A stretch of DNA of 62,308 nucleotides, counting the filler, from Sphacelaria rigidula (lineage: Eukaryota): assembly GCA_964200075.2 (NCBI GenBank). It is 10 parts of 10 records of this genome, joined end to end, with 100 filler letters (N's around TTAATTAATTAA, not from the genome) between each part and the next. Parts side by side here need not be neighbours in the genome. Positions count along the whole stretch, not along the records: positions 49,930 to 56,069 come from CAXNAA020021976.1; 9 more parts are not named here. The stretch is one strand, 5' to 3'. The notes below the pieces were generated by a model. That model was not told the DNA's origin. It ran no database searches and saw only the letters and a list, made by a program, of their open reading frames with translations. A program made the position numbers and the translations under genes. The number at the start of each line of letters is the position of its first letter. Within the stretch, counting starts at the first letter, position 1. Below, piece after piece: positions 6,143-62,308 of this stretch.

Positions 6143-6242
6143 NNNNNNNNNNNNNNNNNNNNNNNNNNNNNNNNNNNNNNNNNNNNTTAATTAATTAANN
6201 NNNNNNNNNNNNNNNNNNNNNNNNNNNNNNNNNNNNNNNNNN
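6143..6242. other. Artificial contig linker (N44-TTAATTAATTAA-N44); also at 12385-12484, 18626-18725, 24867-24966, 31108-31207, 37349-37448, 43590-43689, 49830-49929, 56070-56169
   Basis: Nine identical 100-nt spacers with stops in all six frames. The segments between them are 6142-6139 nt in descending order. Confidence 0.98.
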
Positions 6243-6259
6243 CGGGTTGGAGAAACAAC

Positions 6260-6440
6260 GAATCGGTCGGGCACGCGAGTCATTGCTCGTTGTGGAAAAA
6301 ACGAATAGGGCGAGCACTCGAGTCATAGCTCGTTGTGCAAAAAACGAATAGGGCGAGCACTCGAGTCATTGCTCGTTGTGTTTTCGGAAAACATCAACGA
6401 GTGCACTCGTCTCGACGAGTGATGGCTCGCCCGACGTATG
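6260..6440 (-). mobile_element. MITE-like element (partial, at contig edge) abutting the 5' LTR remnant; same family as 19508-19717 and 20568-20720
   Basis: Ends in ctcgcccgacgtatg and has internal repeats gagcactcgagtcattgctcgttgtg shared with the other copies. Confidence 0.75.
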
Positions 6441-12384: not shown

Positions 12385-12527
12385 NNNNNNNNNNNNNNNN
12401 NNNNNNNNNNNNNNNNNNNNNNNNNNNNTTAATTAATTAANNNNNNNNNNNNNNNNNNNNNNNNNNNNNNNNNNNNNNNNNNNNCAAGAGATGGTCGGAT
12501 TTTGCGTGTTGGGGGCACTGCGGGGGG

Positions 12528-18472: not shown

Positions 18473-18594
18473 GTATGCTGTAACTACTGCCGTGTGGGTG
18501 TATAAACATGTCTCATTCTTCGTCACACTTTCAACCCCTCCCCCCCCCCGCCCCCCCCCCCCCCCCCCCCCCCCCCCCCGCCCCCCCGGGGCCC

Positions 18595-18625
<31 letters not shown>

Positions 18626-19507: not shown

Positions 19508-19717
19508 CACACGTCGGACGAGTCATTACTCGTTTAGACGAGTGCACTCGTGGGTGTTTTTCCAAAACACAACGAGCATGACTCGAGTAGTGTCGCCCTA
19601 ATATTTTTTTCCACAACGAGCAATGACTCGAGTGCTCGCCCTACTAATCTTTACGGCCAACGAGCAGCTCAACGAGTGCGAGTGTCACGAGTCACAATCG
19701 CGCTCGTCCGACGTATG
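19508..19717 (+). mobile_element. MITE with 15-bp TIRs and internal short tandem repeats
   Basis: cacacgtcggacgag ... ctcgtccgacgtatg. Homologous to 6260-6440 and 20568-20720. Confidence 0.8.
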
Positions 19718-20567
19718 AAGTCTTCCCAGGTTTCCAAAGCCATGATGCTCGGAGCATGGCTTATCGTATTACTTGCATTCAGTATAGCGTTCCCGGGATT
19801 CCCCAGGAGGTGTTTTGGGTCGCCAGACTATACTAAAACGTATCAGTTACACTAACACAGGGTGCATGGAGTGGGCAAAACCGGGAAGGAGTGTACATGC
19901 CACAATGTGGTCATTTTCACGAGGCACTAAACCCAGGTGGGTCGTTGACAGACAAAATGAGCTACCGTCATGAATTCTGCTCATCCCTCTGCCAATGACT
20001 TGCAGCACACTGTGAACATGTATGTAGTGGATGGGGATGAACAAGCTGTGTATAGGCAGCTGATCTCCGTCGCTGACAACTACCCAGAACGTGCAAGGGA
20101 GTATGCAGCGGCAGCTGCTGCTGCATTCGGAGAGGCGCACTGCACTGTTTTGTACTGTTGCATGTATGTGCACCGCAACGCCCATATCCTTCCAAGATAA
20201 TTTGCCGCTTGCAACAAGGAGGGAAATGGCGGCCCACCCCGACCCCAAAGGGCTGTGTGGAAAGGTGATGGGGGTAATAACATCATCCAAAGCCACAAGT
20301 GGCGGGCTGCCCGCCGGTCGCCGCATCCCATTGAAAGCTCTCTATCGTCCGGCGACACATATTGCTTGCTACATCAGATGTACATTACCTAATGCGCACC
20401 CTGCCCCTGAAAAAAGATTGCATAAAACTTTCGGTCTTCGTCATAACCTTGTGGCTACATACGCGGATTTTCAGCAACATGTCACTGTTTCGTACAGACG
20501 CCAGACACGCCATTACTAACCAGCCTCATTGGTCGTTCGGGAGGCCTGGTCACAAAGGGGTTAATCA

Positions 20568-20720
20568 TTTCCACAACGAGCAATGACTCGAGTGCTCGCC
20601 CAATTAATTTTTTCAACAACGAGCAATGGCTCGAGTGCTCGCCCTACTAATTGTTACGTCCAACGAGCAGCCCAACTAGTGCGAGTGCCACGAGTCACAC
20701 TCGTGCTCGTCTGACGTATG
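20568..20720 (+). mobile_element. 5'-truncated copy of the same MITE family
   Basis: ccacaacgagcaatgactcgagtgctcgccc repeats, ending ctcgtctgacgtatg. Confidence 0.8.
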
Positions 20721-23043: not shown

Positions 23044-25060
23044 GTGAGGGAGTACACAGCAGGGGCTAGGGGCCTGTTGATTTGACACTTTAGCGAGCGG
23101 GGGGCTCGTAGTCGGGGTCTAAACGCCCCCACCTGCTTGTTGGGGGCTGGATGCTGATTGATTGATGATCGGTCCATCGTCGGGCATGGGTGGGTCTGGT
23201 ACAAAAAACAAATATCGTCACGAGAAGGGTGTGCTTGAGGTCTGCATGATCGGTAACGCTAGCTCGCTGAGGGTCAAATCTAAAAAGGGAAAAAATGTGT
23301 AGAGGAGGATGGAAGTAGAACCAAAGCAAACTGAAGAGAGAAGGAGAAAATAGAAACGTGCTGGCTGGTCCCAGTACTTGACAACTCGTCTCCGGCGATG
23401 GATCACTCGAGGATTGAGAGCAAGCACCTGAACCGTTGGGAAGGGGTGACATCCAAATCGATCATTCACATGAAGGCCATCGCCATCGCGGCTTTTACTT
23501 GATATATGTGTTGGGTTGGCACCATTCGACTGATGAATGAAAACGAAAAAACTGCTCTTACCCGCGGAATACAACAGAAATGAAGTACCTCACCCTGGTG
23601 ATTGCCTTAGAGTTGTCGATCCACCCACTTATCAAAATGTCGGGTTTAATTATCGAACTTTGAGCGATCGACTGGGCTCCAGTACCTCCGGCAAGCGGGG
23701 ACAATTTTTGGTCCCCTCATGAGAAAAATAGTATGATTTTACTCTCTCGTGTGTGTTCCTCGAAGAAAACTGTAATCCGCTGTGCTCGTATGTCCGATGC
23801 GCTGCTGATGCAGGCCTCGACAATTCTTCAGACTCAACTCGTTCTTGAAAATAAAAAAAGAATGTTGGCTCGAAGAACTCACTATCCCCGTCGAAAGTGT
23901 ATCAGCCGGCAGATCTTCAATCTGCGTCAATGGCCAAGCATGGTATGCGACGCACTCCGGAGTGCTTTTACAGTTATTATGGGAATCTTGCTACCTCCAC
24001 AGCCCGTCTTCGTGCTATGTGGCCCGAACTGAGAGTATTCAGCAGACCAACGGTGCAGAACAAGGGCCCCGAGCTGAGACCACGAAGCTCGCGGCGTTGA
24101 TGATGCCGATTCAAATAAGAATGATGCCTTTCAGATTCTGTAAAAAGCAGAACTATGCCGATACTAACTTGGATAGTCAGGGAGTGCGTGCCTGATCACA
24201 ACCCGTTGCCGACTCGAAAACTGCGAAAACCGGCACGGGTGAAAAAAAATGAACAGAAGAAGTTGGAACCCTCTGCCCTGACAGCTGGCTCTGTCGAGAT
24301 AGCACGACTGTTGCCCTACACATCAAAACGCGCTCGAGAGGTGTTCAAGCTCTGCCACGAACAAAACTAGTATGTGTGTCGTGAAGTAGCAGCGCTACAA
24401 CGGCAATGCAGAGGTAGGGGGGGGTACACAGCTGGCAGGGAAGAAGTACAGTTGAGACGATGGGGCATGCGTGCGAGATCAAAACATGCTCGAGACATGC
24501 CGGTCGTGCCCCGAGAGGAAGACTGTGTTCAATGGAGAGTGGTAGCAGGAATTTATCTTGTGTCGTCTGATTTTCAAATTGAATACGATGTCGACTCAAT
24601 CTTCATGTGAAAACGATGCCGATTCCGCACATGAAGAGTTGTCGAGATGAATGACGGTACCCCTGACTGTGGAAGGATCCGCTGCGATGTGGACACGGGA
24701 AATCTAACGGAACGCATCGCAACGCCATGGCGCCCTGGCGCCATTCAGAACACGATGCAGAAGGCAAATGTACTCCGAACCCAAGCACAACTGAAACGCA
24801 TCCTCATGTCCAGCGATGCAAGGAAAGATGCACGGTTAGGACAAATCATCACGACTCAAAATCATCNNNNNNNNNNNNNNNNNNNNNNNNNNNNNNNNNN
24901 NNNNNNNNNNTTAATTAATTAANNNNNNNNNNNNNNNNNNNNNNNNNNNNNNNNNNNNNNNNNNNNCCATTCTTCTCCCTACAGCGCCGCCCTTGGTCTG
25001 TTTCAGGGCCTTTTTCCCCCCTGTGGGCCCTTTTTTTTTTGGCATCCCCCCCCCCCCCCC

Positions 25061-25192
25061 CCCCTATCGTGTCAATGGTCAAACGACTAAGGCAAGCAAC
25101 AAATGAGTACGCCCCTATCGTATCGAAAGGGATCCGTGGTCAACGGTCACACGACTCAGGCAAGCAACAAATGAGTACGCCCCCCCCATCGT
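25061..25192 (+). mobile_element. Two tandem 5'-truncated retroposon 3' ends with a CCCCTATCGT target-site duplication
   Basis: Copies 25071-25111 and 25123-25179 both end aggcaagcaacaaatgagtacg. cccctatcgt lies at 25061-25070 and 25112-25121, and C8-atcgt follows copy 2. Confidence 0.8.
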
Positions 25193-27480: not shown

Positions 27481-27546
27481 GCAGCAGCAGCAGCAGCGGC
27501 GGCGGCGGCAGCAGCAGCGGCAGCAGCGGCAGCAGCAGCAGCAGCA
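27481..27546. repeat. (GCA/GCG)n trinucleotide repeat
   Basis: Direct reading. Confidence 0.9.
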
Positions 27547-35735: not shown

Positions 35736-36960
35736 TTACTGATGATATTTTTTACCGCGCTTCCTGCGCTCAATCTTCCTGGGATGTTTAATCGCCCCGC
35801 TTTTCACGTAGGCAGATGAGGGAGCTGGCCCCTGCCGCAGTACTGAAGGGCCTCTTTTCTTGATGTCAAGCACTTCTTTGATGTACCCTTTCTCCTCTCG
35901 TGTCTTTGTAGCTTCGATGTCGGAGCTGCCTGGATGCGATATTTTGGGCTGCTGCTGCTGTTGCTGCTGCTTCTGCTGTTGGTGGTTCGGCTGCTGCTCA
36001 TGCTGTTGATGGCGGCTATGGGACTGCTCCTGGTGCTGATCACGGGCCTTCTGCCGTGAACTTGTTAGTCGCTTCCTTGTAGGCGATAGAATAACCTTCG
36101 TTTCTGTACCCCTGTTGTTATTTCTGCGCGTGCTGTTTTCTGCTGCTGTAGAATTGACCGGCCTGTTCTTTCCATGGGATTTCAAATTTCATTTATTATC
36201 CGTACTGATGCATGCAGTTGTAGGCTTGGTCGATGGAGATCTAGATCTACTGTAGCTTCTACTCTTGCTCATTTTCCCGGCTGAACAAGACACAGATTTG
36301 ACGTTTCGGGCGGCTGCTGTCCGAGGCGGTTCTACGATCTTGACGGTTCCTGTCTTGTTCGGCGGAAACACTACGGCTGATAATGCTGTTCCCATCCGCA
36401 AAGATTATCCGGATAATACACTAGTCGTGAGTGCTGACTCGATCCTTTTGTTCAAGGTTTTCGAATTTTAAGCAACCTGCATGCCAATGTAGTGTAATGC
36501 TCCACCGCAGTTGCTAATGGGATTTTTAAAATCTCCGAGGTCTACGTAGGAATCACCCCAAAAGACGGTTGACGCTCCTTTCGTTACTGCCTCTACAGAG
36601 GAGAAGAGATGTCTCCCCAGACCTGGAACAATTACGGCAGGAAGTTGAACAGAACGCTTGATTCCTTCAGAATCAGTAAGGATGGTGTTAATAACACCTC
36701 TTCCCGTACCCTGTAGGAGATGGCGTCCGGCAGTAAGAATGCTCAGGGATGGATCGAGCTTCACGTAATCAACCATCTCACGTTCGATATTCGGCAATAG
36801 CTGATTTTCCAAAACATGTCCGTTGGAGCCACTGTCAACAGCCATCTTGAAGGAAATGTCGTCGGCTGTACAATGATCGGCAGTGACATGCGAACCTGAA
36901 AGAAATTCCGGTGTTCAGAACCGTTTCGATTTTGTGCATGCAGATCACAAAACTCAAACC
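35736..36960 (-). mobile_element. Ty1/Copia remnant: protease followed by a low-complexity frame
   Basis: MAVDSGSNGH...ILTAGRHLLQGTGRG...AVIVPGLGRHLFSS is a Copia-type aspartic protease (DSG; VPGL-x-x-x-LFS). No integrase or RT motifs follow. Confidence 0.8.
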
Positions 36961-38785: not shown

Positions 38786-38996
38786 TGGAATGCGTGAGAG
38801 GACCGCATGCTTGGAGGACCGCATCATAGTTCAAAACACTTCAGGATCGACTTTTTAAAAAAACAATTGGGTCAGTCCCTGCAGGGACCACGCCCCTGAC
38901 CCCAACCCCAACACTAACCCTAACCCTAACCCTGACCATAGGGGTGTTTATATTCTGATGCGGTCCTCTAAGCACGCGGTCCTCTCACGCATTACA
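38786..38996. mobile_element. Second copy of the telomere-repeat MITE, in opposite orientation
   Basis: Same TIRs as 30146-30356 and the same 211-bp length. Interior ctaaccctaaccctaaccc. Confidence 0.88.
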
Positions 38997-40814: not shown

Positions 40815-41252
40815 GTTAAAGCCCGGCGGCCACCGCAGCTGGCGGCTGCTTCCTCTCTTGAGACCGCTGCAGCTGCGGGCTTTGCAGCTGCGAGCATGGC
40901 AGCGGCGGGCGTTGCGGCTGCGAGCATTGCAGCTACGAGTGTCCCAGCCGCGAGTGTCGTTAGTGGTGGTGTTCAGCCGCTGATTACTTGCAGTTCGAGT
41001 TGCACGGGTGGAGATTTATCGCCGGAACAACAGCTACTGCAGCAGCAGCAGCAGCAGCAACAACCACAGCAGCAGGAACAACAAACACTGGAACAAGAAC
41101 AGATGCCGCCTCATCCTCGAAAAAGGAAGAGACAGCCAAAGCAGCCGAAGACGCCCAAGAAGCAGTCCAGGGCGCCGAAGACCCCGAAGCTTTCCAAGCA
41201 CGCTCAGCAGGCGCAGTTACGCGCTCAGCAGGTGGCGCAGCAACAAAAAGAG
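40815..41252 (+). CDS. Exon of an Ala/Gln-rich protein with a basic NLS-like segment
   Basis: caag| and gag|gtgggg, 146 open codons. Contains polyQ and PRKRKRQPKQPKTPKK. Confidence 0.6.
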
Positions 41253-43236: not shown

Positions 43237-43420
43237 GTGAGCGAGGCCTTTCCGCTCACTCACGGCCAGCGTCTGCAGAAGATGCAGCGGTCTCTGCAGC
43301 TCGCTCCAAAGCAGAAGCAGCAGCAGAGGTTGCAGGCGAGCGAAATGCCCTCTCCAAGTCTGCATCCCGTCTTGTTCTATCGAGACGCTTGCACGCAATT
43401 GGTATGCCCCCCCCCCCCCC

Positions 43421-43517
43421 ATGCCTGGTCCGGTGATAACCCCGCGCGCTCCGTCCCGGCTTCGTAGGGATGCGAGGTCAATGATCTGATGACTATGGCA
43501 TGCATGATCATGAGTAC
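43421..43517 (+). mobile_element. Truncated retroposon 3' tail between two C-tracts
   Basis: gcctggtccgg...gctccgtcccggcttcgtagggat...ggtcaatg...catgagtac, with C14 before and a C-rich tract after. Confidence 0.75.
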
Positions 43518-43905
43518 CCCCGCCCCCCCCACCCACCCCCCCCCCCCGGCGGGGTCGCGCCGCCACGTTCTAACCCCCACACCCACCCANNNNNNNNNNN
43601 NNNNNNNNNNNNNNNNNNNNNNNNNNNNNNNNNTTAATTAATTAANNNNNNNNNNNNNNNNNNNNNNNNNNNNNNNNNNNNNNNNNNNNAGAAAAGTCCT
43701 CAACAAAAAAGATCAACACCTTCTACCAAATAAAAAAAGTCAAAAACTTTGAAAAAGAAGAAGAAAAAAAAAAAAAAAAACAGGTTCGTCTGCCAGATTA
43801 TTTTGGAACAAGTACCCTGGTACACGCAGGTAAACTGGCACTTGCAAATATCGACTCTAGCTTCTTGTTAGGAGGAAACACACACACAAAACGACCAAGA
43901 TTCAC

Positions 43906-44133
43906 CTTGTTCAGGGCAATCACGAACGGCGTGCGCTTGGAACGCAAGAGGTTGAGGCTCTCGATGGTCTGCGGCTCCAGACCGTGCATAAGGTCCACCA
44001 CCAGAATGGCGATGTCGCACAGGGAGCTACCCCGCGACCGCAGGTTGGTGAAGGACTCGTGGCCGGGCGTATCGATGACCAGCATACCAGGTAGCTTCAC
44101 GTCCACCTTCATGGTCTCGTTCAGCTCGGCCAC
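43906..44133 (-). CDS. eIF5B: eIF5B exon (G3 to G4)
   Basis: [50 protein letters not shown]...FVIALNK. cag| and aag|gtgaat, 76 codons. Confidence 0.96.
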
Positions 44134-44983
44134 CTGCACACGGGGCACGCATTGGCATGTACACCAAAATAGCGTATGTACATGTGTGTGTTGCAACACG
44201 GCCCTGTAGGATGATCACGATACTCGGAAATCACAATGCGAGACAGGAAGGGCCAGGCGTTCAAGATAGGCAGTGTACTCGTGTCTAAATTTACACGTAT
44301 AAGCACTGACTTTTTACTTTCACGAATCCTGCACGTTAGGACGTATTAAAATCAACTGCGACGTGAGAAAAAAACGACTGCGTGCGCGCCGTGCAGACTT
44401 GTTCCTTCGACATTTCTTTCCAGCATTTCTCTTTTCAAGCCTTCATATTGATTCACCATTGCAAAGCCCTGTACTTGAACACCTCATCTTCAAATTGCAC
44501 GTTGTTGAAGACAGCTATCTCCCCCCCCAGATATTTGTATTGAGCAATAGTAAAAAATCGCATTCCGGTTTTGTACGGTTTGACGATAGTACATACATAC
44601 CGCCAGATCGGCATAATCAACTCATCGCGAAAAATGTCGGCGGTTGCGCCTTGAAGTCTTAAGAAGCAAGGCCACGAGCCCGATCTCACTTCTATTGTAT
44701 CACGACTTATTCATACGTCGTACTTGAGAATTAAAAAAAAAAAAAACTCGTGTGTTGGCCTTCCCCCTATTGCGACCACGGCTGATGGAATGGTGTAGAC
44801 TGGCGTCCAGAATGGATGGGATGACAACACACACATTCCAGAGTACCTTACAGCCGGTGGAGACAAGCTGGCGATGATATTACCGGTAAGATCTCCATCG
44901 ACCCATCAACCCGGAACAAAATGGCGTTTCCGCGCGCGTTCCTCTCAACTCCACGTGCATTGTACGTTCACGTTCTTTTGCAC

Positions 44984-49929: not shown

Positions 49930-51035
49930 GGCATGCAACATGATTAGTACGCCCGCCTGCTCCTCCACTCTCCACTGGGGAAGCCACTAGCTCCGAGTCC
50001 CGAATCTCTCATCCGGTCTCGCTCCACCTGGGGATGAAGGTCTGTCACGCTCTGGGAATGGAGATCTGCCACACTCTGACCCTGATGCACTCAGAGACGG
50101 ATTTCAGAGAGACCTCTGCTCGACTGTTTCGACGTCAATTCGTCCCTCTGGCGATTAACACATACACTTGTATGTGTTGATCGCCAGAGGGACGAATGGA
50201 CGTCGAAAGAGTCGGGAGAAGTTCTCTATGGGATCCGTCTTCGAGGTTGTGTGTGTGTTGATCGCCAGAGGGACGAATTGACGTTGAAACAGTCGGGGGG
50301 AAGGTCTGTGGGATCCGTCTTTGAGGTTGAGCTTTGATGGCATCAGGGTCAGAGCGTGGCAGACCTTCATCCCCAGGTGGAGTGAGACCAGACGAGAGAT
50401 TTGGTACTCGGAGCTGGTGGCTTCCCCAGAGGGGAGGAGTTGAAACTGTTGTAGGCTCGGGCTTGAACCATGGAGACTCATGGCACTGTCCATCTACGAA
50501 GGTACTGGGTCGAGGTCAATGGGAGCCTGGTCCGGCGAAAACCCGGCGTGCTCCGTCTCGGCTTTGTAGGGATTTGATATTGATGGTCTCATGAAAACAG
50601 CATGCAACATGATTAGTACGCCCGCCTGCACCTCCACCCTCCACTGGGGAAGCCACCAGCTCCGAGTCCCGAATCATCCGGTCTCGCTCTCTGCCACGCT
50701 TTGACCCCGGTGCCCTCAAGGATGGAGGCCAGAGAGACCTCCGCTCGACTGTTTCGACGTCAATTCGTCCCTCTGGCGATCAAGACATACACGTGTATGT
50801 CTTGATCGCCAGAGGGACGAATCGACGTGGAAGCAGTCGAGGGGAGGTCTTTGTGAGATTTGCTTTGAGTGCATCAGGGTCAGAGCGTGGCAGACCTTCA
50901 TCTCTAGGTGGAGCGAGACCGGCCGAGAGATTTGGTACTCAGAGCTGGTAGCTTCCCCGGAGGAGAGGAGTTGAAACTGTTGAAAAGTCAGGCTTGAACC
51001 ATGGAGACTCATGGCACTGTGCATCTATGAAGGTG
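49930..51035 (+). repeat. Tandem hairpin-plus-tail element, subfamily B (about 2 rearranged monomers)
   Basis: gcatgcaacatgattagtacgcccgcc at about 49931 and 50599. Near-perfect palindromes centred near 50168 and 50791. Confidence 0.85.
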
Positions 51036-51574
51036 CTACAGTACTGGGTGCCCAATCTTTTCAGTGTGCAATTTATTTGTGATAGGCGACATTCTGAGGC
51101 GTTTCCGCTTGCCACCGCTCATCACATCAGGGATCGGAGAAAAGTTGTATCCGCTCCACATTCACCGAAAAAAAACACCTAGTGTATGATATTGGATGAC
51201 TTATGGGCTGACTGATCACCCTGCGTTCTGACACGTTCCAACCCAGATTCTGAGTCTTCGGTGTTTCCGGTCGATCGCGCCTGTCTCGATGTTATCCGTG
51301 AAGAAATGTACTTTTTTTTTTATTTCACCTACTCATTGGGCTACACCCGAAAATCTGTGTTTCACGGTCTATGACACCCTTGTGGTATATGAGGTATCTA
51401 CTCGTATCGCCAGACACATTCAACTTAGATTCACTTGGGCACTGGAGGGGGGGAGACGATACGTCCATTTCACCAAATTAACCGACGCTAGCACCTTCGA
51501 CTTGTATCGAACGGTACTCGCGATAACAACTCTTATGAACGGAAGATAGTTCAGGCGCCCACTACTGAAGGTCG

Positions 51575-53369
51575 GGGTCGATGCGATCCTGGTCCGGCGG
51601 AAACCCGGCGTGCCCCGTCCCGGCCGTGCAGGGATCCAATGTCAATGGTCGCATGACTACGGCATGCAAGATCATTAGTACGTCCCCACCTTCACCCCTC
51701 TTCGGGTAGACCACCAGCTCCTGGTCCCGAATCTCCCGTGCAGTGCCGCTTCACCTAAGGAAATGTGTCCTCCACGCTCTGACCCTGACGCACTCAGAGA
51801 CGGGTCCCAGAGAATCCTTCCCTCGGCCGTTTCGACGTTGGTTTGTCCCCCTGTGGATTCACACGGTAATCTCCAGAAGATCTGAGTATAAGCGTGGCAA
51901 TCCTCAGAGGGAAGGATTGGCGTCGAAACAGTCGAAGGGAGGACCCTCTGGGATCAGTCTCTGAGTGCATCAAGGTCGGAGTTGGAAGACCTCATTCCCT
52001 AGGCTCAGCGATACCACGGGAGAGAGACGGAACTCGGAGCTGGTGGCTTTCTCGGAGGAGAGAACTTAGAACTGTTGCAGGGTTGTGTGTGAACCGTGGA
52101 CGCTGATGACACAGTCCATCTACGAAGGTGCTGGGTCGAGGCCAATGCGAGACTGGTCCGGCGGAATCCAGCGTGTTTCCTCCCGACCGTGTAGGGATCC
52201 GATGTCAATGGTCTCATGGCTACGGCATGCAAGATCATTAGTACGTCCCCACCTCCACCCCTCTTTGGGTAGACCACCAGCTCCCGGTCCCGAATCTCCC
52301 GTGCAGTGCCCCTTCTCTTGGGAGAATATGCCTTTCACGCTCTGACCCTGACGCACTCAGAGACGGGTCCCAGAGAATCCTTCCCTCGGCCGTTTCGACG
52401 TTGATTTGTTCCTCTGTGGATTCACGCGGTAATCGCCAGAGGATCTGGGTATTAACGTGGCAATCCCCAGAGGGAAGGATTGGCGTCGAAACAGTCGAAG
52501 GGAGGACTCTCTGGGATCAGTCTCTGAGTGCATCAGGGTCGGAGCTTGGAAGACCTCATTCCCGAGGCTCAGCGATACCACGGGAGAGAGACGGAACTCG
52601 GAGCTGGTGGCTTTCTCGGAGGAGAGAAGTTAGAACTGTTGCAGGGTTGTGTGTGAACCGTGGACGCTGATGACACGGTCCATTTACGGAGGTGCCGGGT
52701 CGAGGCCAATGCGAGACTGGTCCGGCGGAATCCAGCGTGTTTCCTCCCGACCGTGTAGGGATCCGATGTCAAACGTTTCATGGCTACAGCGTGCAAGATC
52801 ACTACTGCGTCCCCACCCCCACCACTTTTTATGTAGTGCACCAGCTCCTGGTCCCGAATCTCCCGTGCAGTGCCCCTTCTCTTGGGAAAATATGTCCGCC
52901 ACGGTCTGACCCTGACGCACTCAGAGACGGGTCCCAGAGAATCCTTCCCTCGGCCGTTTCGACGTTGATTCGTCCCTCTGTGGATTCACACGGTAATCGC
53001 CAGAGGATCTGAGTATTAACGTGGCAATCCCCAGAGGGAAGGATTGGCGTCGAAACAGTCGAAGGGGGGACTCTCTGGGATCAGTCTCTGAGTGAGTCGG
53101 AGCTTGAAGAAGACCTCATTCCCTAGGCTCAGCGATACAGGGCGAGAGATTCGCGACTCGGAGCTGGTGGCTTTCTCAGAGGAGAGAAGTTAGAACTGTT
53201 GCAGGGTTGTGTGTGAACCGTGGACGCTGATGACACGGTCCATTCACGAAGTGCTGGGTTGAGACCAATACGAGCCTGGCCCGGCGGAAACACGGCGTGT
53301 TTCCTCCCGGCCGTGTAGGGATCCGATGTCAGTGGTTTCATGACTACGGGATGCAAGATCATCAGCACG

Positions 53370-53370
<1 letters not shown>
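51575..53370 (+). repeat. Tandem hairpin-plus-tail element, subfamily A (about 3.2 monomers of 564/564/559 bp) ending in a long C-tract
   Basis: gg(t/c)ccggcggaa at 51591, 52155, 52719 and 53278. Each unit holds an imperfect inverted repeat of about 380 nt. Poly-C runs from 53370 to 53509. Confidence 0.92.
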
Positions 53371-53416
<46 letters not shown>

Positions 53417-53433
53417 CCCCCCCCCCCCCCCCG

Positions 53434-53465
<32 letters not shown>

Positions 53466-53662
53466 ACCCCCCCCCCCCCCCCCCCCCCCCCCCAAACCGC
53501 CCCCCCCCCNNNNNNNNNNGGGGTTCCCCCCCGGCGGGGTAGGGACCCGCGGGCCGGGGTTTCCCCACCCCGGGGCGCCAGATCCTCCGCCCCCCCCCCC
53601 CCCCCCCCCTCGCCCCCTCCTGTCTTCGCCCCGTGTACGTCATGCGCACATCCGACCATCAG

Positions 53663-54079
53663 TATCAGTCCGCGGGATCGTTACACGAGGATCCAGACGT
53701 CCGCGAGCAGCAGATGCTGCAGAAGGCAATCGCGTCGGCAGTGGAGACCGCATCCCCCAGTCCACCCCGCACACGCAACAGGATCACCTCTTTATCGAGC
53801 TCCAAAGTCACGTCTATATCAAGCTCCAAGCCACCGTCGACCAAAGCTGCCGAAGTCGCGCACTCATCATGGTCATCCTCTGCTCCGGTTCAGCGAAGTA
53901 GTCACGGTGCATCGTCATCTTTAAAAGGGGTGGCGCAGCAGACGTCGAACTCCGAAAGTGGGGTAGCGATAACCGTGGAATCCAACTCGTCTCCGCCACC
54001 CCGGCCGGCGCAGCAGCAGCAGCGCACTCATGGCGGCGGACCCGCCCCGGGGTGCTTGTTGGTGTTACACTCCGTGCAG
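53663..54079 (+). CDS. Ser-rich exon of a putative RRM-containing protein
   Basis: cag| and cag|gtgtgg, 139 open codons. UIM-like EQQMLQKAIASA, ending CLLVLHSVQ. Confidence 0.55.
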
Positions 54080-55066
54080 GTGTGGTGACATCGAATCGCT
54101 GTATTTCCTCGTGTGGTGAGAAGATCGAAGTAAGATTGCAATATCAAGTTGGTGAGAAAGTGACGCAAGATTATATCCCTCGAGACTTTTTTTCCTCAGC
54201 AATTATGGAAATGAGATCGGCCGCTAGAAGTGAAGCTGCGCATGATTCCCGGGGTCATCGTTTTCCAGGTGGCCGAATTTCAAGTCAAGTCCTGGAAAAG
54301 GGGAGAGGAACACGCAAATCTTGTAAACCTTTCACGCGTGTGCTGTACTCCCTCATTCGAAGTGTTGGTCTATTCAGAAGGTGGGGGTATATTTGAGCCG
54401 TAGATTACTATGTTGTTCGTGGCCATCCGCGGTATTTTTTCGCAGAGGTAAAAAGGTACACAAGTGTTGGTCGTTCTTCATTGTTTCCGAATTTGGAAAA
54501 TGACCTGACCTGACAATTCAGAGCTCATCGGTTGCGCTTGTGCTCGAGCATATGATGGTGTCGGTGTGGACCCTGAAGCCTGCAGCTCAGTTTGGAAAAC
54601 GGCGATGTGTTCATGTTGATGACGGCATCAAGTCGTTGTGCACAAAGCGAAAGGTATCCAGGGTCCTGCTAGTAGCTGTCATCTTGTTGCCTGTTTTCGT
54701 TGATGTGCGCAGCCGCATCGAAATATGCTTCGCTGGGCGAGCTGGAGGCAAAAACCGCGAACACAGCACGTGCTTTCTAGATGAAACTACAGTGCTTGAA
54801 AGTATGTAGCTATTGCTATCTTTCTAGCGTATGTATCGATTAAACTTAGTTCTCATAGTCTTTCGAGAGAGTCATCACACGCGCACACAGGTATATACCG
54901 TTTACAACCCAGAGTTGGACGAACTGTACGTTCCGTCAGGTTCTCACCTGGCCTGTAATGAACATCTGATATTTCTCAACTTTTTTTTTTTCCATATTTT
55001 TTATTGATGCAAAGGGATGCCCTTCACCTCTTTCATGTGCATTTCAAACTCATATCATCACTTCAG

Positions 55067-55230
55067 GCTGGTTTGGGGCACGATGCCGTTCTGGAGCGCC
55101 TGAGAACGCTCGTTCCTCCGAGGACTGTTGTCCGTGTGAGAGCGGCTACATCGTTGGAGGCGAAGGCGGCGGGGGTGGCACAAACAACCGGTACTCTTGT
55201 TGCGGAGTTCCGCACCGAACTCAACGCCAG
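55067..55230 (+). CDS. Exon continuing a divergent RRM-like domain
   Basis: cag| and cag|gtatgt. The spliced peptide LLVLHSVQAGLGHDAVLERL...VVRVR...GTLVAEFRTELNAR fits a beta-alpha-beta-beta-alpha pattern. Confidence 0.55.
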
Positions 55231-55949
55231 GTATGTTCGGAGCGGGGAGGGCTCGTGTGTTCATTCAAAGTTCATCTTTCGTTGCCTTTGGTAGTGGTGG
55301 TGGTCACGTCTGCGGTTGGTTGTATGGTGAGACGAATGAAAGACGAGGCGGTGCTCCTCGTGGTGGGTCGTCGATGCCATTATTACTTGTAAAAGTAGTG
55401 ATAGTGGTGGTTGTGTAGCACTAGCCGTAGCGGCAGTAGTGGTGGGTATTTGGTGCATGTTGGGGTAGTGTGAACAATTCCAAAATCAAGCAGTGCGCGT
55501 TATTTTTGGTAGTAGTGGCGGTATCAGAAGTCGTGGTGGTGGTGACATGGTGGTAGCAGCCGGGGCAATAGCAGTAATCTTTGATATCAGTCATGGGCAA
55601 CGTAAGTGTAGTTTCGGGACATGACTGACCTTCGCAAGCGCAATGCACCACGATTCATGGCCCACCGATGCATTTGTAGTGTCCGCTTTGTATATGTGCT
55701 CGTAAAGCTGGGCGACTTGATTTCGAGCTCAACGCGTAGACGGATAATCACATGCAAGCTGCTCCAAACAATGGTAGCGCTGGTGATGCTAGTTAGTGCT
55801 GGTGTTGGAGGCGGGGGTGGTGATGGTGGTGGTGGTAGTGGTGGTGGTGGTGCCTATATAGTGGAAATAGTAATGGTGATACTACTGGCAGTTGTAGTGG
55901 CAATGGTGACGGAAATGGTGGTGGGCAAGGTGCCGGCGGGGGAGAGCGG

Positions 55950-56069
55950 GGGGTGTACTCATGACAATGCATGCCGTAGTCATCAGACCATTGACCTCGT
56001 ATCCCTACAAAGCCGGGACGGAGCACGCCTGATTTCGCCGGACCAGGCCCGCACTCAACCACCAAGCGC
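55950..56069 (-). mobile_element. Retroposon 3' tail (same family as 43421-43517)
   Basis: Minus strand reads gcctggtccggcgaaatcaggcgtgctccgtcccggctttgtagggat...catgagtacacccccc. Confidence 0.8.
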
Positions 56070-56565
56070 NNNNNNNNNNNNNNNNNNNNNNNNNNNNNNN
56101 NNNNNNNNNNNNNTTAATTAATTAANNNNNNNNNNNNNNNNNNNNNNNNNNNNNNNNNNNNNNNNNNNNAGATGCCCAGTACCAGTGTACCGCGCAGATA
56201 TCGAAACGGCTTTTAATGTGAAGACAACAACAACAACAACAACATATCACTGCACATTGCTTTTGAAAATCCCGTGGTCCGCAGTCTACCAAAATCACTC
56301 AACCGAGTATGCTTTTGTTATGAGAGGTTTTTGCTTGATAGTTACTAGAAGCACAAAATATTCACGTCGCAGCAATAAACCAGGTAGCTCAATATGCGAA
56401 CTGATGCACCCCGAAGCACGAAATCGTGAGCCCGAGACCCACCGCTGTAACTTCTTGACCGTTTTTTTCTGCCAGTACCATGTCCATGCTGTATGGAGTA
56501 TATTGTATGTGCGCTGTAGACGCTGTACAGCATATTAACAGCGATGAATTCTACACGGAGTGACG

Positions 56566-60650: not shown

Positions 60651-61190
60651 CTGGTTGTGCATTGGAAGTGCACCAGCACATCGCGCGAATGGAAGAGGGA
60701 CGTAAGTGTAGTGTCGGGAATAGCAGATTCCGCAGTCCTCCCGCAGGCTGCTATCGAAACCAATTCCACACAGGGCAGTCCCCACAGACTTAGGCATGTA
60801 GTGTACTACGGTCAAGGACCAGTAGCCGATTCTGTGGACAAATCCGTCAGTATCAAAAGAAATGTTTACATGCACGCCAAGTGTATGCTCGGATGCAATA
60901 TTCAGCGTGCTCTGCATAACAATATTTTCGATGCGAACACCCCGACATTGTGAACAGCGGTTGCGACTCCAGAAGCTGATACCAAACGAAAAGCAGCTAC
61001 CTCGACGGCTCGTCTCAATGCCTGTACCCAAAACAATTCAACATACAACCAAATTTCTGGAACCTGGGTGACCTACCGGAGCCCAACAACGTGAAAAGCG
61101 GTTCACCGCCGACAAAACTCGGAAACCAACCGTGGCAGTAGCAAATCCTATCAACCCAACGCAAACACAAGACAACCTGGTAGCCCTCAC

Positions 61191-61591
61191 CTGGTGAGTC
61201 GAATAGTACTGGGCGTGTCCCGCGAAGTCCCACATCAACACCTCAAGCGGCTTAGTAGGATTCGGCCTCCATGGCTCAATGTGAACATCGACACCTCGAG
61301 TGCGCTCGCTCTCCGCCGTCGGAGTCGGCTTGCCCTTCCGTAGACCCCTCGCTAGAGTCGTTTTCCCGGCGCATATCGCACCAATCAAAACCATCTTCAA
61401 CCCATGATATGTGGTGGCCCCCGAGCGTGTCAGTGCCTGGTAGTAGCTGACGATTTGTGTCCATCCGCCTTCGACAACCGCAGATGGCGGTTTGATCCAA
61501 GGATTATTGTATACTCTTGTTCCCGTAAAGTTATAACCAATGCCCACTTTGGGTATCAGAGCAAACCTCTCAGCAGTAACCCTGGGTACAC
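61191..61591 (-). CDS. ROCO protein exon: LRR-cap/linker and first half of the Roc GTPase
   Basis: NNPWIKPP..., KMVLIGAICAGKTTL (P-loop), RTRGVDV, WDFAGHAQYYSTHQ. Donor cag|gtgagg. A 540-nt phase-0 intron (60651-61190) gives THQ-FFLT. Confidence 0.92.
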
Positions 61592-62308
61592 CTGTACGTG
61601 TTCACACGAAAATCCAATAGGCAGTACAACATGTTCAAAGCCACCCAGGGGGGTTCAATCATGGTGGTGGTTCCAGTAGAAACCGTGAAAACTGCTTGTT
61701 GTACCGCTGGCGCGATCGGCAGCAAATCGATCCATCAGATAAGTGACGACTGTCGCACAAGAAGTCATGCCCCCCCTCGAGCGTCATTCTTCCTGTAAAA
61801 CATCAATCATACAAGGCGGTCATACACAAACGTTGATTACTTCTGTTCCCAACACCGCAGGCTCCGATGCCGAGGACAGTATCCACATTCCCTTCTACCA
61901 ATACCAAAGGAGTAAAAGAGAAGTGTACCAGGCGATTTGATATCCAAGCAACGTAAGGTGTGGTGAGGGCGAAACATGAATCATCGCGACAGTCAAACAC
62001 CGAAAACATGTCAAATTACGATTTGTAGGGCGGACGTGTCATTATCGGCCCCGAGCAGCACGTCAACCAAGGTATAGTGGTAGTCAAGGAATGGTGCGAC
62101 GATAAGGGGGGTAGACTGAGCTTTGTGATCAAGAAAAAAAGCGTTAAGTTACATTAGTACTCGGCTTTCGAAGTGCATTAATAAAAGACCTGTGCACAGG
62201 GGAGGTGGGGGGGGGGGGGGGGGCTTTTTCCAAAAAGCCAGGCACAGTGGGCACGAAAAAAAAAAGACAACGCCAACAGGGAAAAACCTAAGGCCCTGCC
62301 CCCCAACC

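Follow-up and report, generated by a model that had tools for sequence, protein, structure and literature searches.

A short tandem array of a probable (C)n-tailed, non-autonomous retroposon in the genome of Sphacelaria rigidula

Background

The closest described systems come from Ectocarpus, where RTE-X long interspersed nuclear elements (LINEs) have been recorded with C-rich ends: in the available part of that record RTEX-1a is annotated "(C)n 3'" and RTEX-2 "(C)n termini/TSD", while the column for target-site duplications (TSDs) reads "C-rich" (PMC12477816). The same part of the record lists two non-autonomous elements, RTEX-N1a (607 bp) and RTEX-N1b (604 bp), the former annotated with "can be present in tandem" and "60 bp 3' end 83% RTEX-1/RTEX-2", together with RTEX-N2, a 188-bp element with a similar tail; RTEX-N1_Ec32 is given there as the most abundant family of the Ectocarpus genome, with more than 6000 copies (PMC12477816). 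In a stretch of 62,308 bases from the alga Sphacelaria rigidula (assembly GCA_964200075.2), called the window below, tandem units of 564 bp have been identified, each with a long foldback, or hairpin, and a 3' tail that recurs throughout the genome. The locus is best explained, with a probability that we would place at roughly 0.68, as a short run of tandem copies of a non-coding, non-autonomous retroposon that belongs to a (C)n-tailed family, probably depends on an RTE-X-type LINE, and has been multiplied by copying in place.

The likeness to RTEX-N1_Ec32, taken from its description, extends to a non-coding unit of about 600 bp (607/604 bp there, 564 bp here), a 3' end common to other elements, a (C)n terminus, possible C-rich target duplications, a very high copy number and occurrence in tandem, and the tail-only and short copies found here are paralleled by RTEX-N2_Ec32, a short relative sharing the tail (PMC12477816). 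A foldback body, present here, is unmentioned in the available entries for RTEX-N1 and RTEX-N2, and the hairpin-bearing unit of Sphacelaria differs further from RTEX-N1_Ec32 in being low-copy (about 5-15 times single-copy depth), its hyper-abundance being confined to the tail (PMC12477816). All of the anatomical features that could be tested -- C-run terminus, C-rich sites, truncation, abundance and tandem habit -- agree with those of RTEX-N. By this analogy the element would appear to work like, and is probably, an RTEX-N-type element, short of being a proven member. Word searches of the literature for poly-C-tailed retroposons gave nothing relevant beyond this brown-alga transposon record, and no claim is made that such elements are otherwise unpublished.

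Stretch and samples

The window is made up of ten pieces of about 6,140 bases each, discontinuous with one another and separated by spacers of the form N44-TTAATTAATTAA-N44 at nine sites (6143-6242, 12385-12484, and so on to 56070-56169). Features on separate pieces have no physical linkage to one another, and piece ends cut through elements, such as the leftmost unit (O1, described below) at 49930 and a tail at 56069. The tandem arrays are located in piece 9 (49930-56069). Logan contigs of four runs (X1, X3, X5 and X8) have been aligned to 50508-53375, to which 4367 contigs of X1, 8197 of X3 and 5771 of X5 aligned; the status of X8 as RNA is only a guess. Among the public runs listed as containing the stretch, one bears the label algae metagenome, and none is recorded as RNA. 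Summed contig depth is not the same as copy number, and all abundance figures based on depth are rough. Stretches without contig cover in some runs, such as 51756-52139 in X1, have been given no evidential weight.

Anatomy of the tandem arrays

A 36-nt anchor recurs at 51570, 52134, 52698 and 53257, with spacings of 564, 564 and 559 bp, which bears out the head-to-tail units described in the initial annotation of this stretch. These units, all on the plus strand, are U1 (51570-52133, in the 564-bp register), U2 (52134-52697), U3 (52698-53256, 559 bp) and U4 (53257-53369), the last of which is a tail alone with the terminus ...ATCAGCACG. U1 and U2 are 91.5% identical, U2 and U3 91.4%, and U1 and U3 86.8%, and 91 alignment columns are variable among the three. 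Each of them contains an inverted repeat of 333-337 nt running from CCACCAGCTCC to GGAGCTGGTGG, located at 51711-52046, 52274-52610 and 52838-53170, respectively; the fold-back arms had been recognized earlier, with a hairpin length of about 380 nt that has proved too great. The arms of U2 are 167 nt long and 71% complementary without gaps, and the right arm of U3 carries a deletion. U2 shows the order of parts most plainly as tail (core from 52153), C-rich junction, hairpin and linker.

The limits of the array are also as first described. On the left it opens some 20 nt before a tail core; on the right, beyond the terminus of its last tail, come about 140 nt of C broken by a few G or A (53370-53509, plus strand) and then a 10-N assembly gap (53510-53519). 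Read as retroposons, the array consists of a 5'-truncated copy (the first 130 nt or so of U1, comprising tail and C-rich junction) and then three full copies, the last with the long C tail. None of the six open reading frames (ORFs) inside the arrays, all of which were scanned, matches a Pfam family, and the arrays are accordingly non-coding. Past the gap lies a tail-like stretch followed by 20 C (53523-53610, plus strand), which matches the U4 tail at 52 of 74 aligned positions and shows 19 A/T-to-G/C differences from it and none in the opposite direction. It is probably one more copy of the tail, poorly resolved; its differences look like those of a poor consensus beside a homopolymer, not like biology, and the array's gap-side end is badly resolved. 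C runs and tail arrays of this kind cause breaks in assemblies, of which the gap and degraded copy at 53510-53610 are an example.

Contigs cover the junction from tail to hairpin (X1 record 6, 52209-52315, including tail, C-rich junction and left arm) as well as the period boundary between U2 and U3, with right arm, linker and next tail (X3 record 16, 52565-52797; X5 record 23, 52666-52741). The hairpin part of U2 stands at about 5-15 times single-copy depth and is thus low-copy, unlike the hyper-abundant tail. There is also a unit variant that matches none of U1, U2 and U3 (X1 record 7, with 12 differences in 263 nt), at a depth of 122, about 8 times single-copy depth.

A second, older and diverged array of the 564-bp-type unit, overlooked in the initial annotation, lies a short way upstream at 49930-51062. 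Its first unit, O1 (49930-50507, plus strand), is cut on the left by the piece boundary and has its hairpin at 49984-50420, including an 81-bp tandem duplication of the inner right arm (50169-50329; 2.0 copies, 86% matches). The second, O2 (50508-51062, plus strand), consists of tail, C-rich junction, hairpin (50653-50951) and linker, and stops a few bases into a next tail. No part of the arrays is nearer to the abundant genome-wide family than the tail core of O2 (50523-50573). O1 and O2 are 86% identical to each other and 70-72% identical to U1-U3, and their palindromes are better kept, with arms 82-87% alike. The two arrays together hold five inverted repeats of 299-437 nt, in the same orientation, within 3.4 kb. 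Between them is a unique spacer of 507 bp (51063-51569) that has no other match in the window and is covered by one contig of 503-506 nt (51106-51611) at single-copy depth (14.6 in X1, 78.8 in X3 and 32.3 in X5). Since this contig extends into U1, the left boundary of the younger array is confirmed in two studies.

The tail family and its poly-C ends

The tail, about 95-115 nt long, belongs to a very abundant dispersed family with 5'-truncated copies. Summed depth over the tail-core bin (50508-50603) reaches 1.42 million in X1, 5.15 million in X3 and 2.91 million in X5, spread over thousands of distinct contigs, or very roughly 10^4-10^5 single-copy equivalents in the three runs. Retroposons with (C)n tails, which had so far been noted in one Ectocarpus supplement, may on this evidence dominate another algal genome, with 10^4-10^5 tail copies.

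Tail-only copies, which the initial annotation had also reported, are present elsewhere in the window. One of them (43407-43589, plus strand, with the tail itself at 43425-43517) is immediately preceded by 14 C, is followed by a C-rich run, and is cut by a piece end; another, of the abundant subfamily, is on the minus strand (55938-56069, tail at 55954-56046), its 5' side being cut by a piece end. A related subfamily is represented at 25046-25187 on the plus strand by two tails, 5'-truncated and arranged head-to-tail as C19-TATCGT..GAGTACG-C4-TATCGT..GAGTACG-C8-ATCGTA. C runs or C-rich stretches stand at the tail termini of U4, of the copies at 43425 and 55954 (minus strand) and of the pair at 25065-25187, giving the family a (C)n 3' terminus. 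The loose ends of contigs tell a similar story: their consensus behind 51675 is C-rich (5 contigs in X1, 5 in X3 and 6 in X5), C runs often lie directly upstream of truncated tails, which points to a head-to-tail habit, and one joint in X3 consists of a tail end, nine letters and a tail start. In being dispersed, high-copy, 5'-truncated and capable of tandem arrangement, the family behaves as an RTEX-N-like retroposon does. Signs of C-rich duplication are seen in the C runs on both sides of the 43425 copy and in the repeated C-run-plus-TATCGT of 25046-25187, which the two tails there apparently share as a target duplication.

C/G homopolymers of at least 10 nt are present at roughly twelve sites across 61 kb (8982, 12529, 18540-18625, 22365, 25046, 29014, 43407, 43536, 53370-53509, 53590 and 62207). 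Several of these have no recognizable tail next to them, and they may be either extremely truncated (C)n-tailed copies or preferred targets. A degenerate tail pattern found 117 loci in metagenome_contigs, none of which matched the array or the tails by blastn at E<=0.01, so that they are chance matches from an over-loose pattern; a stricter 22-base tail pattern had no matches in viral_contigs or genome_contigs.

Folding and divergence of the hairpins

The 564-nt unit has a predicted fold of -287 kcal/mol, compared with -212 +/- 8 for 100 dinucleotide shuffles (z -9.44; 0/100 as good), in keeping with the fold-back arms seen in each unit, and the fold of the minus strand is equally good (z -10.99). 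The initial annotation had seen here a structured-RNA element mobilized by a LINE, and had counted 7 G-U pairs in one stretch of the plus-strand RNA. Those pairs are real, but they are a local cluster: over whole arms, G-U wobbles on the plus and minus strands number 15/16 in U1, 17/11 in U2, 15/10 in U3, 10/4 in O1 and 9/6 in O2, without strand bias in any of the five hairpins (binomial p 0.18-1.0; 1.0, 0.35 and 0.42 for U1, U2 and U3). A non-autonomous element with a LINE-type 3' tail is what stands of that description, on anatomical grounds; the structured RNA is not supported, given that both strands fold alike, that G-U bias is lacking and that divergence looks neutral.

Over their aligned positions the arms of U1-U3 are 70% Watson-Crick paired (82-87% in the O units), each of the three units having 19-24 transversion mismatches, and between the U and O lineages neither arm is closer to its own-side counterpart. 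The covariation check proposed with the initial annotation has been made on the five hairpins of the window: their RNAalifold consensus shows both-sided changes at 9 of 129 pairs, compared with 7.3 +/- 1.7 in shuffled alignments (120/500 as high), which is not above the controls. The unit-specific changes at paired columns among U1-U3 comprise 7 transitions from Watson-Crick to plus-strand G-U, 8 pair-breaking transitions (G-U on the minus strand) and 5 pair-breaking transversions, which is the neutral expectation. The deletion in the right arm of U3 is uncompensated, and an 8-bp helix kept in U3 has been lost in U1 and U2.

Outside the hairpins, structure is not in evidence either. Folds of the 227-232 nt between hairpins do not surpass those of 200 shuffles (z +1.87, +0.79 and -1.54), so that a circular monomer would not be rod-like; this lends support neither to the self-pairing that had been suggested for the remaining 185 nt nor to the almost fully rod-like circle built on it. 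An extension of the inverted repeat into tail and linker, where the free ends align suggestively, was considered and dropped, the folds of that region being no better than those of shuffles. RNAalifold on 7 tails gives 18 pairs with 0 compensatory changes. Rfam yields no matches at gathering scores in the whole window, and at E<=10, on either strand of 49930-53509, it yields nine sub-threshold matches, to seven microRNA-precursor and two snoRNA families, with no ribozyme, tRNA or short interspersed nuclear element (SINE) among them; the initial annotation had found no ribozyme either. ARAGORN finds no tRNA-like genes in the window.

The hairpin is thus without RNA-level signature, every test run having been negative or uninformative, and can be described as an inverted duplication at the DNA level, decaying neutrally since it formed, for which an RNA function is not needed. 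Long inverted repeats of such retroposons can be mistaken for structured-RNA genes. A foldback or MITE-type (miniature inverted-repeat transposable element) DNA transposon has been rejected, as no direct repeats flank the hairpins; the pairing arms of O1 and O2 continue for 9 more nt past the hairpin ends (CTGGGGAAG paired with CTTCCCCAG in O1).

Origin and growth of the array

Read from 5' to 3', the unit consists of a 333-337-nt foldback, about 100 nt of linker, a 3' tail of about 95-115 nt and a short, impure C-rich junction, the tail being the common 3' end of this genome's very abundant family of (C)n-terminated retroposons. We infer that this family is most likely mobilized by an RTE-X-type LINE, as is described for the RTEX-N elements of Ectocarpus. 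Its copies tend to insert at C-rich sites, the C tail of an earlier copy included, and in this way seed head-to-tail dimers; landing at C runs accounts for such dimers, the clearest case being that at 25046-25187. In the arrays themselves the C-rich junctions are impure and are homologous among units and across both arrays, which argues that the 564-bp period was fixed once and then copied whole. Similarity among the units is mosaic: the first 70 alignment columns, in the 5' half of the tail, contain 15 differences found only in U1, and the next block, about 70 columns long, has only 4 differences between U1 and U2 and 15 found in U3 alone. Neighbouring units are also more alike than distant ones. 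Taken with the homologous, impure junctions, this neighbour likeness and mosaicism favour unequal exchange or conversion, and the period would most likely have spread by local unequal crossing-over or conversion, retroposition from a multimeric template being less likely. The foldback may have arisen in reverse transcription, by snap-back or twin priming, or by the formation of a palindrome at the DNA level. The locus would then be an ordinary, decaying tandem repeat of retroposon origin, its sole unusual trait being the (C)n-tailed family behind it, and would serve as a worked example of how a homopolymer-tailed, LINE-dependent retroposon becomes a small satellite.

Related processes are known from coding LINEs. 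In the Zepp clusters of Chlorella, successive insertions into the tail of the previous copy have led to head-to-tail nests of 5'-truncated elements, and the twin priming responsible for inverted 5' ends of L1 is a route by which reverse transcription can produce an inverted duplication at the 5' side; Zepp and L1 are coding LINEs with poly-A tails, unlike the unit here. SINE-derived satellites offer a looser parallel, being tandem repeats formed, at modest copy number, from portions of a short retroposon; in the available part of their description their source is pol III SINEs in squamate reptiles, whereas here no pol III head was found and the unit contains the whole tail together with the junction (PMC10702118). 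A strict SINE is rejected for the present element, as 49930-53509 has no tRNA, 5S, 7SL or SINE match in Rfam at E<=10. The B-box-like word GGGTCGAGGCC upstream of the tail is a resemblance only.

Several points weigh against a retroposon array copied in place. No target-site duplication is found around the array, its flanks sharing no common word of at least 8 nt, with the right flank lying behind the gap and a badly resolved stretch. None of the Logan contigs spans more than one unit, and the number of units is therefore unverified. A Pfam scan of the window's 88 ORFs that reach 110 aa detects no reverse transcriptase or autonomous LINE, and the proposed kinship to RTE-X comes from anatomy and published descriptions, not from sequence homology. 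Finally, cell-level covariation in the hairpins is above that of nearly all shuffles, with 14 cells compared with 8.2 (3/500 as high) and a score of 0.164 compared with 0.139 (2/500 as high), an excess that can come from relatedness alone, there being effectively only two lineages.

The alternative that survives best, though it seems distinctly the less probable, is growth of the array by retroposition itself, either as serial insertions at one C-rich site or as a single cDNA made by template jumping from a 5' end to the next C tail. An intact (C)n 3' end with a truncated 5'-most copy is the polarity expected of target-primed reverse transcription, serial insertion with a common C-run-plus-TATCGT duplication seems to have produced the tails at 25046-25187, other copies show tail-to-tail joints, and the variant unit of X1 record 7, matching none of U1-U3, stands at about 8 times single-copy depth. 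Independent insertions should, however, have independent, pure C runs, while the internal junctions are impure and homologous (CCCCACCTCCACCCC-like), and the neighbour likeness and mosaic similarity fit unequal exchange in place.

It is rather unlikely that the locus is a source of hairpin RNA, with double-stranded RNA from read-through transcription diced to small interfering RNAs (siRNAs), as either a selected regulator or a by-product of silencing. The five same-orientation inverted repeats would suit such a role, as would the one 178-nt contig on U2 in X8 (52520-52697, depth 4.2, 4 differences), a run in which the tail core is at high depth and the single-copy spacer is uncovered; transcription and carry-over of multi-copy DNA are inseparable in this signal, which is a weak hint at most. 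The arms of U1-U3, however, with just 70% Watson-Crick pairing and 19-24 transversion mismatches each, have not preserved their pairing since the units diverged. Slightly more doubtful again is a bolder possibility, that the 564-nt unit is an active element with a hairpin body, parasitic on a (C)n-tailed LINE whose reverse transcriptase, primed on G/C homopolymers, copies it as multimers by jumping from the 5' end of one template to the next C tail, with the long hairpins of the unit feeding the siRNA pathway of the host. If that were true, retroposition would seed satellite arrays directly, in a retrozyme-like lifestyle without a ribozyme.

There is little likelihood that the array is an artefact in which the assembler expanded a single unit or dimer beside a homopolymer and a gap. 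The 10-N gap after the C run, the one-directional A/T-to-G/C differences past it, typical of poor consensus, and the want of any contig beyond one unit are all in its favour, but the three units differ at 91 variable columns, the left boundary is contig-covered in two studies (51106-51611; X1, X3 and X5), and contigs run over both the tail-to-hairpin junction (X1 record 6) and the U2/U3 boundary (X3 record 16, X5 record 23).

Least likely of all is the retrozyme-like cycle suggested in the initial annotation, in which monomers are excised from a multimeric transcript, circularized to rod-like RNA and recopied as multimers by a retrotransposon's reverse transcriptase: the tandem layout with its 5'-truncated first copy and intact 3' end, the large hairpin, and the word CTGATGA in the linkers of U1-U3 (52103, 52667 and 53227), which we take to resemble a hammerhead core, would agree with it, but that word is CTCATGG in both O1 and O2, none of the Rfam matches (0 at gathering scores in the window; 0/9 below threshold in 49930-53509) is to a hammerhead or other ribozyme, shuffles fold as well as the 227-232 nt outside the hairpin, compensatory changes are no more frequent than in the controls, and the hairpin has no strand preference and has decayed neutrally. 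As far as the available parts of the reports go, the retrozymes of plants and animals resemble the present units in being non-autonomous, non-coding, repeated units of a few hundred nucleotides with strong structure and a borrowed reverse transcriptase, and differ in their defining hammerhead ribozyme, which was not found here, where the monomer is also not rod-like (PMC4918200, PMC7229834).

Other features of the window

The window is eukaryotic and gene-poor. The only Pfam matches among its 88 stop-to-stop ORFs are an exon of a translational GTPase (GTP_EFTU, 43801-44214, minus strand, E 6.5e-20), which we take to resemble eIF5B, and a Roc GTPase domain (61041-61601, minus strand, E 3.7e-08). 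A protein atlas search with the Roc fragment returned a mixture of taxa, which gives no pointer to the source taxon.

A tandem repeat family of 43-44 bp, with the core CAACGAGCAATGACTCGAGTGCTCGCCC, is present on either strand at three places on two pieces (6252-6380, 19568-19666 and 20561-20652), and is a separate dispersed minisatellite or small element. Trinucleotide repeats (GCA/GCT/GTG) and GC-rich repeats of 15-30 bp are found within open frames at 27481-27546, 35948-35998, 40868-41101 and 55796-55852; these are low-complexity tracts, coding or non-coding. An interstitial telomere-like (CCCTAA)7 lies at 38894-38937.

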